The notes beneath the pieces are model-generated. The model saw nothing but the letters and a program-made list of their open reading frames with translations. It was not told the origin of the DNA and searched no databases. The position numbers and the translations under genes were made by a program. Shown here piece by piece: positions 1 to 7,604 of a stretch of 16,668 nucleotides of DNA (position 1 is its first letter; each line of letters begins with the position of its first letter). This DNA is from a virus. The stretch lies in UHGV virus genome UHGV-0071483; one strand, written 5' to 3'.

Positions 1-12
1 TAACAGTGATGA

Positions 13-32
13 TACTGTTTGCACATTCAGTG
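13..32. promoter_or_regulatory. Near-consensus LexA (SOS) box-like site TACTGTTTGCACATTCAGTG (CTG-N10-CAG; one mismatch to CTGT-N8-ACAG) upstream of the Panacea-domain gene
   Basis: Direct reading of sequence; same TACTGT...CAGTG flanks as the perfect box at 11260-11279. Confidence 0.25.
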
Positions 33-49
33 TAATGAGGAGGGTGGTT

Positions 50-523
50 ATGTACAGCCCGGTACAAATAGCCAATAAATTCATAACGTTGGGAAACCAA
101 CATCATAATCCTCTGACCCACATGCAACTGCAGAAGCTTACTTATATTGCCCATGGTTACTATTTAGCATTAACAGGTAAGCCTTTGCTCAACGAATGTG
201 TCTCTGCGTGGAAGTACGGTCCGGTTATTCCCGGAATGTACGATGCTTTCAAAGATTATGGGAATAAGCCTGTTACGAATGTAGCAGTAGCTCCTTTTGG
301 TGGCATTGTTACTATGGATCCGCAAGCAGAGAGCATTATAGGGGCTGTTTATAAATTTTACGGCTCGAAAAATGGAATTGAGTTATCAACTCTAACTCAT
401 ATGCCAGGTACGCCTTGGTCACAAACTTATAATGGTATTGGCTCGTCAATCATCCCAGATGATGCGATCAAGACTTATTATCATGATTTATTGAATAACC
501 GACAGCAATGTCAGGGCCTCTGA
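50..523 (+). CDS. DUF4065 (Panacea domain; GepA/SocA/PanA-like) protein, 157 aa from the ATG at 50
   Basis: Translated motifs LTHMQLQKLTYIAHGYYLALTGKPLL...AWKYGPVIPGMYDAF and C-terminal THMPGTPW match the Panacea/DUF4065 family pattern as I recall it; GGAGG 8-10 nt upstream of ATG 50 (the ATG at 35 lies inside the SD). Confidence 0.7.
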   Translation: MYSPVQIANKFITLGNQHHNPLTHMQLQKLTYIAHGYYLALTGKPLLNECVSAWKYGPVIPGMYDAFKDYGNKPVTNVAVAPFGGIVTMDPQAESIIGAVYKFYGSKNGIELSTLTHMPGTPWSQTYNGIGSSIIPDDAIKTYYHDLLNNRQQCQGL

Positions 524-545
524 AAAAGTAATATTCAGGGATGAC

Positions 546-1094
546 ATGTCTCGCAATTCAGATATCTATAAACTTATCGGAGCGGCTGCAGGTGTTGAAA
601 ATGGTCGCTCTGAAGCATCCTTAAACTATACTGACAGTCAAGAACAGGTTTTTAAATCTGCATTTGAGCCGTCTAATCATGAGAGCGATGATGATTCTTC
701 TTCAGAAAATAAAGCTATTCTGGAGGAAGAAGAGTTTGGTTCTAATACAGGTGCATTGCATGAGTTTATGCAGCAGCACAGAATGGACAGTCTTCAAGCT
801 CAGCTTGATATGCTCAAATCACAAGTACGCGATAAGATAGCTGACGCAACTGGTAAAGAAATAGACAATGAACTTCGGACAAAAATGGCATCATTCACGG
901 TTTGTTTTATGTCGTTGTGGTGCTTATTTGTAGCCGTAATGTTTGTATCGTTTCTTATTGCTCATGAAGGAAAGCCTCCAGTTGAAGCAATCGTTGCATT
1001 ACTAGGTACAAGTACAATTAGCATTGTTGGTTTGGTTGGCTTCGTTGTTAGTGGATTGTTCAAATCAAGAAAAGATGGCGATAAAGAAAAATAA
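546..1094 (+). CDS. Membrane protein: acidic/Ser-rich, probably disordered N-terminal region, predicted coiled coil, two C-terminal hydrophobic helices; candidate toxin/effector partner of the upstream Panacea gene
   Basis: ORF 22 nt downstream of the Panacea gene on the same strand; hydrophobic segments FTVCFMSLWCLFVAVMFVSFLIA and AIVALLGTSTISIVGLVGFVVSGLF; weak SD AGGGA. Confidence 0.5.
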   Translation: MSRNSDIYKLIGAAAGVENGRSEASLNYTDSQEQVFKSAFEPSNHESDDDSSSENKAILEEEEFGSNTGALHEFMQQHRMDSLQAQLDMLKSQVRDKIADATGKEIDNELRTKMASFTVCFMSLWCLFVAVMFVSFLIAHEGKPPVEAIVALLGTSTISIVGLVGFVVSGLFKSRKDGDKEK

Positions 1095-1121
1095 CCCGTA
1101 TATACACGGGTTATTCATGGT
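1091..1121 (-). terminator. Intrinsic terminator between convergent genes (stem AACCCGT/ACGGGTT, loop ATATAC); T-tract is on the minus-strand side, weaker for the + strand
   Basis: Minus strand reads hairpin followed by ATTTTTCTTT; sits between the + strand cargo module and the minus-strand early operon. Confidence 0.6.
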
Positions 1122-1127
1122 TTTAGT

Positions 1128-1400
1128 TTAGTTATATTTTTGTTTATCCGTTCTGACCTTTTCCCACTCAGCTCGTCCTTCTTCTCGTCTTTTGTCTATG
1201 TATTCCGCAAGATCCTGAATATTGATGCAACGTTTTGCTTTTTGTGATGTGCCGATGCGATATGTTGGAATGGGCAACTTACAAGCGTTTGCTTTTGCTT
1301 CTGCCGTGGCTGGACTCATACCAAAGTACTTTTGGCTAACTGCTGAGAGTTCAATGTTTGGGGTATTGAATTCAGCCATCAGTAAAAACAAGGTGTTCAT
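1128..1400 (-). CDS. PrtN family / excisionase-like small DNA-binding protein (90 aa from the internal start MNTLFLLMA)
   Basis: N-terminus MNTLFLLMA and overall pattern resemble pyocin activator PrtN-family / Xis-like proteins; GGAG SD upstream of the ATG at 1400; last gene of the leftward operon. Confidence 0.55.
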   Translation of the reverse strand: MNTLFLLMAEFNTPNIELSAVSQKYFGMSPATAEAKANACKLPIPTYRIGTSQKAKRCINIQDLAEYIDKRREEGRAEWEKVRTDKQKYN

Positions 1401-1436
1401 AATTTTCTCCATCAAAACCGGCTGCACCCGGGAAAA

Positions 1437-2009
1437 TCATAATTCTGTGCTGGTGGCAGGAATTAATTTCTGCCAGATAGCGGAAACATATTTTGCCTGA
1501 TGACGGGCATCAGCCAGGGCGTTGTGCCGTTCGCCATCGAAAGGCATGTCCATTTTGGGGTCGAATCCGATGGAACGCCCAAGCGTAACGATCGTGCGTA
1601 CATCGTGGTCATTCCAGTACGCCCACGGGCAGATTTGTCCTGCTCGCTCGTAAGCTCCACGTAAAATTACGTTGTCGAAGGTGGCCCCGTTACCCCAGAC
1701 TTTTAAATATTTTATATTGTCTGCATGCTGATTAATGAAATGACTCAATTCAGAGAGTGCATCGCTGATCGATAAAGTGTCATCAATACAGATTGCAGCT
1801 CGTGCTTCAGGGCTCTGTTTCAACCACCACAGGATGGTATCGCCGTCAGGTGTAGCTCCTTGCTTCATAGCACTGTCTAGGCTGACAACCGCATAGAATT
1901 CTTGTCCGATGTCACCGGTTTCTGGGGTAAAGAACACCGCGCCAATGGAAACGATCGGTGCATCCTTATTTTTCCCCATCGTCTCAAGGTCGATCATTAA
2001 GTTGTTCAT
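1437..2009 (-). CDS. DEDDh-type 3'-5' exonuclease (DnaQ-like fold), 190 aa
   Basis: Motifs MIDLETMG (Exo I D-x-E), WGNGATFDNVIL (Exo II), HNALADARHQAKY (Exo III H-x4-D); ATGA start/stop overlap with the upstream gene at 2007-2011 and GGAGG SD. Confidence 0.75.
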   Translation of the reverse strand: MNNLMIDLETMGKNKDAPIVSIGAVFFTPETGDIGQEFYAVVSLDSAMKQGATPDGDTILWWLKQSPEARAAICIDDTLSISDALSELSHFINQHADNIKYLKVWGNGATFDNVILRGAYERAGQICPWAYWNDHDVRTIVTLGRSIGFDPKMDMPFDGERHNALADARHQAKYVSAIWQKLIPATSTEL

Positions 2010-2605
2010 CACTTCACCTCCTGCGGCGGTTCCGGTAGCGGCATCCAGTGGGTTACCTCCATGCAGCACCCATCATCCGACGTAAACCACGAACGGTCGT
2101 CCGCACTGAACCAGCCAATCCGGATATAACCCCACACATCGAAGAAAAGTACGTCGTGATTATTATCCGGCATTCGTTCACTACAGCTTATCCAACCATC
2201 CGGAGTTACCGGAGAGTTGCCCGACAGCTCGTTCAACTTGTAAGTCTGGCTTACAGGTTCGGCACCATGAAGCATGGCGGCGCGGCAGGCGTTCCAGCCT
2301 TCATCAAAACCGACTATGCCATTATTTAAAGACGGACGAACATCTGGCACCATCGGCACTGGCTTGGCTATATATAGCGGCTGAACATACCAGCCCTTTG
2401 ATAACCAACTGTCAGCAATGTTTTTACTCCGTGTTATTGCCGGAATACCTAAGCCATTGTCTGAATGCAGCCATGCCACCGGTTCTGCTTCCAGCGATAC
2501 CAAAGCAATTTCATAAGCACGGCGCTCAATATTGTCTCGCACATCCAGACTGCCTATGCGCTCTTTGATTTCTTTAATCAGTTCTTTGTCGGTAAATGTG
2601 GTCAT
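2009..2605 (-). CDS. DUF551-domain prophage protein (full-length YfdT-like)
   Basis: C-terminal THWMPLPEPP motif typical of DUF551 as I recall it; TAATG coupling with the upstream gene; GGAGG SD. Confidence 0.55.
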   Translation of the reverse strand: MTTFTDKELIKEIKERIGSLDVRDNIERRAYEIALVSLEAEPVAWLHSDNGLGIPAITRSKNIADSWLSKGWYVQPLYIAKPVPMVPDVRPSLNNGIVGFDEGWNACRAAMLHGAEPVSQTYKLNELSGNSPVTPDGWISCSERMPDNNHDVLFFDVWGYIRIGWFSADDRSWFTSDDGCCMEVTHWMPLPEPPQEVK

Positions 2606-2967
2606 TATGCCCCTGCCTCCGGTGCCTTTGGTATTACTGCCCAGTGAGTGATATTGACGTTTTCAAGATCCCCGACCTGAAATGTCCACTGCCATTCTCC
2701 GGTTTCCTTTTGTCCCCAGGTGTACCAGAGAGAACGCCAGCCAATCAGCCAGCCTTCTCCGTTAGCATCAAATAACAGAACACTTTCATTTGCAGGTGGC
2801 AATTCAGCTGACACTGGTATTATTTTGTTTTCCAGTGCCGCACATTTAGCTTCAAGCGCGTCGAATTTACGTACTAGGTACTCAGCATTTGTTTCGTTCA
2901 CTTTCAGATCTCGCGGTACACATTTCCCGTGAAGAAACCCTTCCATTTCGAAAACATTCATGCGCAT
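2605..2967 (-). CDS. yfdS: YfdS-like prophage protein, 120 aa (DUF551-like C-terminal motif ITHWAVIPKAPE)
   Basis: Size and position in the YfdP-Q-R-S series; alternative start at 2961 would give ATGA coupling with the upstream stop. Confidence 0.5.
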   Translation of the reverse strand: MRMNVFEMEGFLHGKCVPRDLKVNETNAEYLVRKFDALEAKCAALENKIIPVSAELPPANESVLLFDANGEGWLIGWRSLWYTWGQKETGEWQWTFQVGDLENVNITHWAVIPKAPEAGA

Positions 2968-3494
2968 TTGCGTAACTCCGATAACTCGTTAAAACGTTCC
3001 ATAAACATCCCGTAGGCATGACCTGGAGACAGTGGAATAACTTTGAACATCTCTGTTGCCGGGATACCTTCCAATACAGGCCAGAAAGAGCCATCATCAA
3101 GTCCGAGATCGCGGCGTTCGGTTGCCAGCATAATGAGATCGGCATATTTCACTGGCGTGCTCATAACAGGAGGTAACCCGTATTTCTCACGGATTACGGC
3201 GTCTATTTTTTCTTCCATCCGTTTATAGTCAGGAAGAAGTCGTTTCAGTGGTGCGGGGATGTCCTGGCAATACGCTTCTGTTGCATCATGCATTAACGCT
3301 TCAAAAGCAAATTCCTGCGGTACCAGTTGGCTGCAAAGCACCGCATGTTGGGCAACGCTGTAGAAATGTGAAAGATGCCCTGCAAAGCGACAGATATTTA
3401 AAAGAGAAACCGCGATATCGTTAATAACGATGTCGTCTTTATTTATCCTGTCATAATAAAAATGCTTCCCGGAAAAAGTTTTAATAAATGACAT
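2958..3494 (-). CDS. yfdR: HD-domain phosphohydrolase, YfdR-like 5'-deoxynucleotidase (178 aa from MSFIKTF)
   Basis: H...HD metal-binding motif (FAGHLSHFYSVAQHAV...EALMHDATEAY); sequence and 178-aa length match YfdR as I recall it; GGAGAA SD before the ATG at 3494. Confidence 0.7.
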   Translation of the reverse strand: MSFIKTFSGKHFYYDRINKDDIVINDIAVSLLNICRFAGHLSHFYSVAQHAVLCSQLVPQEFAFEALMHDATEAYCQDIPAPLKRLLPDYKRMEEKIDAVIREKYGLPPVMSTPVKYADLIMLATERRDLGLDDGSFWPVLEGIPATEMFKVIPLSPGHAYGMFMERFNELSELRKCA

Positions 3495-3621
3495 TTTGTT
3501 CTCCACGTATATGCGCTGCACCGCGCTGAATTCTGGTAAAAGGAAGCCCTCACCATCCGGCGATTATTGAGTCAATTACGTTTCCATAAATGCCCCCGCA
3601 GGGGCATTTGCAGTAATGAAA

Positions 3622-4446
3622 TCAGGCGGTGAAAGTACCAATAAAGGTTTCTACTTTGCTGTCCTTGAATTTCTCAACAAGCAGATCACGAAATTCGTTA
3701 GCCATTTCTTCCTGCACTGCTTCCAGCTGAATAATGCGCAGAACCAGTACAGGACGATCGCCAGTGATAATGCTGAGGCGTAATTTAAACGGACGTTCTT
3801 TCAGGCCTTCAAACGGAACGCATTTAAATTCAAATGCCACAGGCATAATATCTTTGGTCTTCGCTTCGACATACTCCATCAGGGAGCGTTTGCCGCTGAA
3901 GTCATTGTCTTCAAAATCAGCGGTCTGGTTTGCTTCAATCGTGATTTTACGGACTGCCGCAGCCGCTTTTGTTGCCTGAATGGCATCACCATTAGCATCA
4001 AAGCCCACAAGGTAGTCGGCCCAGTCTTCAATCCATTCTGCCAGTGACTTCTGGGAGTTACGCTCGCCATTAACAGACAACAGGGCAGAAAACGGTGCTG
4101 TCTTTTTCAGTTTGAGGGTGGCGGTGTTATCTGCGTGACCTGGTTCATCAATAGTACCCAGGTTAAGCACACTGACGGCTCGCATATTATCGGCATCGAT
4201 AAAGCAGCGGGTTCCTTCATCTGCAAGATCTTTAGAATAACGGGTAAAATCATCAATGCTGGCAGTGGAAAGCGCACCACGGAAACGGAATCGATAAAAA
4301 TTAAATTTTTCCAGATCATGAATGCGGAAATTCTCAGGCAATGCCACGGCATCGGCGCCAATCTTACTGATAATTTCATTAACACCCTGAGCAGAAATAA
4401 GAGCATAGATTTGATTAATTGCGGTTGCGTCTAAGTTCTGAGACAT
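3622..4446 (-). CDS. yfdQ: YfdQ-like prophage protein (DUF2303-like), 274 aa
   Basis: Length and position match YfdQ; GAGGAC SD upstream of the ATG at 4446. Confidence 0.65.
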
Positions 4447-7496: not shown

Positions 7497-7581
7497 TTCT
7501 GCCATTCCGGGACGTTACACTGTTCAGGCACCTTATAAAGCGGGTGCCGGGCGTGGAAACCCGGAATTCACCAAAGCGCAC

Positions 7582-7604
7582 AACCGCGCTCTTGCGGTTT
7601 TTTT
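7582..7604 (+). terminator. Intrinsic terminator-like hairpin (stem AACCGC/GCGGTT, then T7 run) inside the 383-aa track ORF, upstream of the Rha start
   Basis: Direct reading; argues that 7168..8319 is not a single gene. Confidence 0.4.

Follow-up and report, generated by a model that had tools for sequence, protein, structure and literature searches.

Nine PanA-PanT toxin-antitoxin (TA) pairs were newly verified by Kurata et al. (2022; PMC8832971) and are listed in Table 1 of that study. One of them is a pair from Escherichia coli STEC O31, which consists of the toxin PanT (WP_000019185.1) and the antitoxin PanA (WP_000287252.1) and is listed with the mode of action "Membrane". The supplementary table of the same publication records for this pair the order A|T, a spacing of 22, the toxin cluster T3, and the entries "noNTD", "TA", and "NotPhage". 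In E. coli this PanT acts as a toxin, and a 10x10 cross-neutralization matrix revealed that only the cognate PanA neutralizes it (Kurata et al., 2022; Fig. 2B). Metabolic labeling showed that induction of this PanT leads to the inhibition of transcription, translation, and replication alike. Furthermore, WP_000019185.1 depolarizes the membrane, as followed with DiSC3(5), and lets SYTOX Green enter, an observation that was interpreted as the formation of large pores (Kurata et al., 2022). Here we describe a two-gene module, panA and panT, which is located near the left end of the viral genome UHGV-0071483. The whole analyzed stretch of 16,668 nucleotides (nt) is referred to as the window. With a probability of about 0.92 the module is an allele of this experimentally characterized E. 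coli PanA-PanT type II TA system.

This assignment is made because the validated accessions are found at this very locus and because the proteins of the window are nearly identical to them. The window PanA shares 153 of its 157 residues with WP_000287252.1 (97%), and the window PanT is identical to WP_000019185.1 at 172 of 182 positions (95%, E = 1e-129). RefSeq loci were sampled until one of them carried WP_000019185.1, and this was the locus of strain STEC1588, which contains the genes for WP_000287252.1 and WP_000019185.1, followed by the same genes for a PrtN-family excisionase (xis) and a 3'-5' exonuclease that are also present in the window. WP_000287252.1 is the Panacea protein of this locus in twelve inspected RefSeq loci. 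The locus, the gene order, and the spacer of 22 nt are thus shared between the window and the STEC O31 pair, both PanA proteins are stand-alone Panacea proteins, and both PanT proteins belong to cluster T3. The charged N-terminus and the C-terminal transmembrane (TM) helices that Kurata et al. (2022) describe for this cluster are also found in the window PanT. The record of phage PhiR47_1, which was deposited in GenBank in 2025 (PV340566.1), labels the two genes "PanA antitoxin" and "PanT toxin".

A full-text literature search for the accession WP_000019185.1 retrieved the 2022 paper alone, the supplements of Ernits et al. (2023) do not list the E. coli PanAT accessions, and PanAT is not mentioned in the SNIPE preprint, in which phage PhiR47.1 was used. 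In RefSeq, PanT is named "hypothetical protein" in every inspected complete genome that carries panT. The preliminary description of the module, which was made from the sequence alone, had proposed toxicity and rescue experiments as well as the use of membrane dyes. Because a nearly identical allele was tested by Kurata et al. (2022), these experiments have already been published.

Several points weigh against the assignment. Four PanA residues and ten PanT residues differ between the window and the tested proteins. The four substitutions in PanA all lie within the C-terminal 32 residues, and the ten substitutions in PanT are found in the N-terminus and in the first TM helix (TM1), where they include C120W, L124C, and V131G. 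In addition, the five pairs in which PanA was shown by pull-down to form a complex with PanT do not include the E. coli pair (Kurata et al., 2022). Lastly, the AlphaFold2 model of PanT, which was built with 38 homologues, is only moderately confident, with a mean predicted local distance difference test score (pLDDT) of 62 and a predicted template modeling score (pTM) of 0.28.

Features of the two genes and their products

The gene panA (50-523, + strand) encodes a protein of 157 amino acids, and panT (546-1094, + strand) encodes a protein of 182 amino acids. For panA an ATG at position 35 is given by the program that lists open reading frames. The ATG at position 50 was used instead, because it is preceded at a distance of 6 nt by the Shine-Dalgarno sequence AGGAGG (38-43), and because RefSeq and the phage records agree on this start. 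The spacer of 22 nt between the two genes (524-545, + strand, AAAAGTAATATTCAGGGATGAC) contains a weak ribosome-binding site for panT, AGGGA (537-541). The average G+C content of the module (50-1094) is 40.0%, compared to 49.2% in the remaining window. A hairpin (1090-1115, both strands) extends over the stop codon of panT and is predicted to be a bidirectional terminator between the convergent genes panT and xis. It is significantly stable in both orientations, with folding energies of -12.7 kcal/mol (z = -2.9) for the + strand and -14.4 kcal/mol (z = -4.3) for the - strand, on which it is followed by the U-tract UUUUUCUU. Due to the stability on the - strand and the trailing U-tract it should work better as a terminator of leftward transcription from xis. 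The xis gene itself (1128-1400, - strand) lies outside the module and closes the leftward operon. Its product (WP_001093911.1 in RefSeq) matches PF11112 at 2e-23 and phrog_1300, "excisionase", at 5e-40. The arrangement that had been noticed from the sequence, i.e., two adjacent genes on the + strand that are convergent with the early-left operon, separated from it by a terminator, and richer in A and T than the prophage core, was therefore found in all its parts. Scans with Rfam and for tRNAs of positions 1-1500 of the window did not reveal any RNA gene, and there is thus no sign of an RNA antitoxin.

Both open reading frames are real genes and have not arisen by chance, judging from the conservation of their order and from the selection acting on them. 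Homologues of PanT occur across the Enterobacterales, namely in Klebsiella, Enterobacter, Salmonella, Providencia, Serratia, Pantoea, and Cronobacter, with identities down to about 40%. For four of these homologues, which have 42-64% identity to PanT, eight loci were inspected, and all eight contain a Panacea gene in the same order 21-44 nt upstream. A comparison of 12 E. coli alleles yielded ratios of nonsynonymous to synonymous polymorphism (pN/pS) of 0.05 for panA and 0.18 for panT, and thus both genes are under purifying selection. Diversifying selection on PanT was also tested for and, at a value of 0.18, not found in this set.

PanA matches the Pfam family SocA_Panacea (DUF4065; PF13274) with residues 27-123 (E = 6e-18). 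The score of 66.2 bits is far above the cutoff of 25.7, and the Panacea domain that the preliminary description had recognized was thereby confirmed in a search with hidden Markov models. PanA has no N-terminal DNA-binding domain. A GPV motif, which has been described for the Panacea domain (Kurata et al., 2022), is present as G57-P58-V59 and is preceded by W54-K55-Y56. PanA also matches the NCBIfam model SocA_antitoxin (NF047745) with E = 1.5e-28 and 99.7 bits, and does not reach the equivalog cutoff of 190. A sequence search of the PDB with PanA retrieved no match.

The acidic, serine-rich N-terminus and the two C-terminal TM helices that had been proposed for PanT are well supported. Residues 1-70 have a net charge of -10 and contain 12 serines, and two hydropathy peaks indicate TM segments at about residues 116-140 and 146-170. 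In contrast, the additionally proposed coiled coil has weak support. A long helix is indeed predicted, but only 7 of the 14 a/d positions are hydrophobic in its best heptad register. The AlphaFold2 model places a disordered acidic segment at residues 17-54, after which a long helix (53-139) would continue as TM1 and would be connected by a short loop to a second helix (146-178). An alignment of PanT with the 38 homologues revealed that the acidic N-terminus is hypervariable and that the C-terminal module is strongly conserved. The conserved motifs are G-x-x-IDN-x-LR, FM-x-x-WC-x-FV, and the nearly invariant ALLGTSTISIVGLVGFVVSGLFK in the second TM helix.

PanT is matched over its full length by phrog_13343 (2e-111), and profile searches of Pfam and NCBIfam did not assign it to any family. 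A scan of both proteins against PADLOC-DB v2 yielded only noise (REase_I, E = 0.021; KwaA over the TM region, E = 0.029), and a search of the PDB with a PanT profile likewise did not go beyond noise (E > 0.1). Weak matches of PanT to KwaA, DUF677, DUF2207_C, 7tm_6, IRK, and DUF2975 were rejected as compositional, because they all cover the TM region and are far below the respective cutoffs.

Among the 12 E. coli alleles the substitutions in PanT are concentrated in the N-terminus and in TM1, with tight conservation of the central helix. The variants in TM1 are C, L, or W at position 120, C, L, or W at position 124, A or V at position 130, A, G, or V at position 131, and T or V at position 134. 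The L124 allele of the window is a minor variant, which is present on 12 contigs. PanA exists in only two protein variants at the 12 compared loci, which differ at residues 126, 136, 137, and 142. One and the same PanA protein is paired with eight distinct PanT proteins in the set of 12 alleles, and ET120 contributes a ninth PanT accession.

A cargo slot of dusA-integrating prophages and its predicted promoter

In a megablast search this 1.5-kb region was recovered from genomes of E. coli as well as from the records of three phages, one of which is PhiR47_1. A truncated fragment of the gene for tRNA-dihydrouridine synthase (dusA) is located about 300 nt upstream of panA, and dinF, yjbJ, and zur are found further out. 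The circular genome of phiSTEC1575-Stx2k has the order tail, DinI, integrase, attP, panA, panT, xis, exo, which assigns the module to the slot between int/attP and xis. The flag "NotPhage" of the STEC O31 pair in the 2022 table contrasts with the situation in the window, where the pair clearly lies inside a dusA-integrated lambdoid or Stx2k prophage. The flag is best read as a limitation of the pipeline used at that time.

The distribution of the pair shows that it is accessory cargo and not a core gene of the prophage. The preliminary description had likewise regarded it as cargo and had named conservation as a core gene of the prophage family as the observation that would speak against this. 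Of 5,426 complete E. coli genomes, 79 contain panT, and each of these has just one copy, which is on the chromosome. Parts of positions 1-1500 of the window are matched by 746 E. coli records, of which just 78 cover at least 80%. The partial matches in phages span only positions 1125-1500, and mEp460, PhiR40_1, PhiR55_1, and Lys8385Vzw contain xis and exo and lack the pair. By analogy, the partial matches in E. coli genomes probably also represent xis and exo without panAT. In sister phages the slot is filled by other genes. PhiR40_1 (locus L014, 222-1212) contains a protein of 179 amino acids of unknown function ("YafM", without a match in Pfam or PADLOC) and a YafO-family toxin (PF13957, 76 bits), and mEp460 (L015, 2031-2934) contains two unrelated small open reading frames for unknown proteins of 177 and 57 amino acids.

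The slot between int/attP and xis behaves as a hotspot for TA and moron genes. In E. coli MIN14 (L007, 3173-4381) a transposase gene of IS1414 (IS256-like) is located between panT and xis, so that the module is split from the prophage and is itself undisrupted.

A promoter scan did not detect a convincing panA promoter inside the window, which begins 49 nt upstream of panA. These 49 nt (1-49, + strand) are the end of the panA leader and, at the same time, of the attP arm, which extends from the dusA fragment to panA (L003, 3745-4050; position 1 of the window is position 4001 of L003). A perfect TTGACA-16-TATAAT sequence is located outside of the window, about 158 nt before the start codon of panA (L003, 3865-3892), and it is retained in nine of the nine loci that reach that far upstream. 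Around this predicted promoter the attP arm contains three direct repeats of the type AAACA(C/G)TGTGA and two palindromes, ACAGTGT/ACACTGT and AACAGTgatgatACTGTT, of which the latter lies in the panA leader at positions 2-19 of the window. The repeats of the ACAGTG/CACTGT type could be arm sites for Int or Xis, or they could form an operator that overlaps the panAT promoter. A classical autoregulation by the antitoxin is unlikely, because PanA has no DNA-binding domain.

Beyond xis, the early-left operon (1437-3521, - strand) encodes a 3'-5' exonuclease, DUF551/Ea22-like proteins, and a 5'-deoxynucleotidase of the YfdR type, and is followed by YfdQ (3622-4446). This early-left block is mosaic, and its length and gene content differ in STEC309, 07-4299, 2014C-4135, and APEC O78. 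Further inside the window an isrK Hfq-binding small RNA (7528-7604, + strand, 67 bits) is adjacent to a C4 antisense RNA (7629-7716, + strand, 83.6 bits). Both matches are at the Rfam gathering level, and both RNAs are located in a regulatory region of the prophage. We take the adjacent isrK and C4 RNAs to be the P1/P7-type RNA arrangement for antirepressor control of some lambdoid prophages.

Mode of action and biological role

The most likely mode of action is that panA and panT would be co-transcribed from the strong, conserved sigma-70 promoter predicted in the attP arm, and that PanT would be a small inner-membrane protein. In the absence of PanA it should depolarize the membrane and form large pores, so that transcription, translation, and replication would come to a halt, as has been published for the allele with 95% identity. 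The stand-alone Panacea protein PanA would specifically neutralize its cognate PanT, as in the published pair. The neutralization would most likely occur by direct binding, and, by analogy to other PanAT pairs, PanA would probably contact the N-terminal region of PanT and the helix in front of the TM hairpin. For the PanT of Bartonella it has been predicted that the Panacea domain contacts the unstructured N-terminal region and the helix before the TM segments, and the mutants Y56A and H120E support this prediction (Ernits et al., 2023; PMC10440598). The pair PanT(D11/T12):PanA of Bartonella choladocola (apis) resembles the pair of the window, because the antitoxin is also a stand-alone Panacea protein and the toxin is also small, with a charged N-terminus and with TM helices at the C-terminus. 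The Bartonella PanT depolarizes the membrane and forms pores (Kurata et al., 2022; Ernits et al., 2023). However, the two toxins do not belong to one sequence cluster, although clusters T3 and T12 have been considered as perhaps homologous (Kurata et al., 2022), and the interface mutants are mutants of the Bartonella pair.

The role for which the pair has been selected might be anti-phage defense by abortive infection, a possibility that we rate at somewhat less than an even chance. On superinfection the phage would either remove PanA by inactivation, titration, or dilution, or trigger it as a sensor, and the freed PanT would collapse the membrane before the invader could finish its cycle, so that the lysogen population and the resident prophage would be protected. 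The genomic context of homologous pairs argues in this direction, because such pairs are found in recognized prophage defense hotspots. Pairs of the PanT family with 42-50% identity are located in the P2-like hotspot between gpA/DinI and portal (L020, 2489-5724; L022 and L023, 2495-5517; L018, 2502-6495). Their neighbors in the hotspot include a type I-C retron with a reverse transcriptase-Toprim protein (705 bits) as well as weak matches to DUF4145/PD-T7-4-like and to DitB-like proteins, and a homologous pair in Providencia adjoins a methyltransferase and a specificity subunit of a restriction-modification system. In addition, the int/attP-xis slot of PhiR40_1 harbors the above-mentioned YafO-family toxin, and the consensus promoter, if functional as predicted, would enable expression in the lysogen. 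On the other hand, neither protein has a match in PADLOC, and guilt by association is a weak argument for TA modules, which gather in any permissive slot. The searchable literature yielded neither plaque assays with Panacea pairs whose toxin belongs to this family nor a relevant defense phenotype of DUF4065/Panacea modules. Taken together, the hotspot associations favor a role in abortive infection, without proving it. The more specific and still more tentative proposal would be that PanAT is an abortive infection system of the prophage with the Panacea domain as the phage sensor, and that the int/attP-xis slot of dusA-integrating lambdoid and Stx prophages is a hotspot for defense and TA genes, analogous to the gpA-portal hotspot of P2 in which the homologous pairs reside.

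Two phage-borne systems offer a comparison for this defensive role. RosmerTA of the Gordonia phage Kita, which consists of RmrT(D5) and RmrA, causes rapid depolarization and pores, and its function in anti-phage defense has been demonstrated (Ernits et al., 2023). Like PanAT it is a two-gene module carried by a phage, and in both cases the toxin has a C-terminal membrane region, but RmrA is an ImmA-protease/helix-turn-helix protein instead of a Panacea protein, and RmrT has no sequence relation to PanT. With RexAB of lambda and other membrane-depolarizing abortive infection systems of prophages the analogy is a functional one, in that the pair is perhaps expressed in the lysogen, if the predicted promoter is used, and in that the effector collapses the membrane potential. 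RexA is a sensor-activator and not an antitoxin. PanA, an antitoxin, differs from RexA in this respect, and the proteins of the two systems do not have any sequence similarity.

The main alternative to abortive infection is addiction, i.e., retention of the prophage. Loss of the prophage would be followed by the disappearance of the putatively labile PanA, and the residual PanT would kill the cell. We regard this as a rather doubtful explanation. It is in line with the classical architecture of a type II TA system and with the position of the module at the edge of the prophage beside attL, where it can be lost only together with the whole element. The module also persists in degraded dusA prophages, namely in APEC O78, in which the early region is shortened, and in MIN14, in which IS1414 lies beside it. 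However, most relatives of this prophage do not contain the pair, and therefore it is not needed for maintenance.

A different mode of neutralization is realized in the type VI system SocA-SocB of Caulobacter. SocA, in which the Panacea domain was first described, is an adaptor for ClpXP, and SocB targets the replication clamp. It is improbable that PanA is likewise a proteolytic adaptor that delivers PanT to ClpXP. The antitoxins of both systems share the Panacea domain, PanA is recognized by the SocA_antitoxin model, and the involvement of a protease was left as an open question by Kurata et al. (2022). However, the score of PanA with this model is little more than half of the equivalog cutoff, and a SocA-like adaptor is therefore only a minor rival. 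Furthermore, PanT is unrelated to SocB and has no match to the SocB family, stable complexes were obtained for five other PanAT pairs, and the mutations in the architecturally similar Bartonella PanT support a direct interface between the Panacea domain and the toxin.

The possibility raised in the preliminary description that the pairing has been undescribed, which might be suggested by the missing family assignment of PanT in Pfam, NCBIfam, and PADLOC and by its RefSeq name, is refuted by the entry of the exact pair in Table 1 of the 2022 paper, by the mapping of its accessions to this locus, and by the PanA and PanT labels in PV340566.1.

The module is real and was correctly recognized as a Panacea TA system and as prophage cargo, with a Panacea match, a TM hairpin, and near-identity to a verified pair, but toxin, antitoxin, pairing, and mode of action have been known since 2022. 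As a discovery it thus carries little weight, and its residual value is contextual. The new aspects are all minor, namely the placement as cargo between int/attP and xis, the conserved predicted promoter outside of the window, and the homologous pairs in defense hotspots. The validated pair is now assigned to a mobile element, namely to lambdoid prophages that integrate into dusA and carry it as accessory cargo, and of which some are Stx2k-converting. In addition, the RefSeq name of PanT can be improved. The hotspot associations are a concrete reason to ask whether panAT defends lysogens against other phages, which is a moderately interesting question. If this were true, it would be the first demonstrated anti-phage function of a membrane toxin that is neutralized by a Panacea protein.

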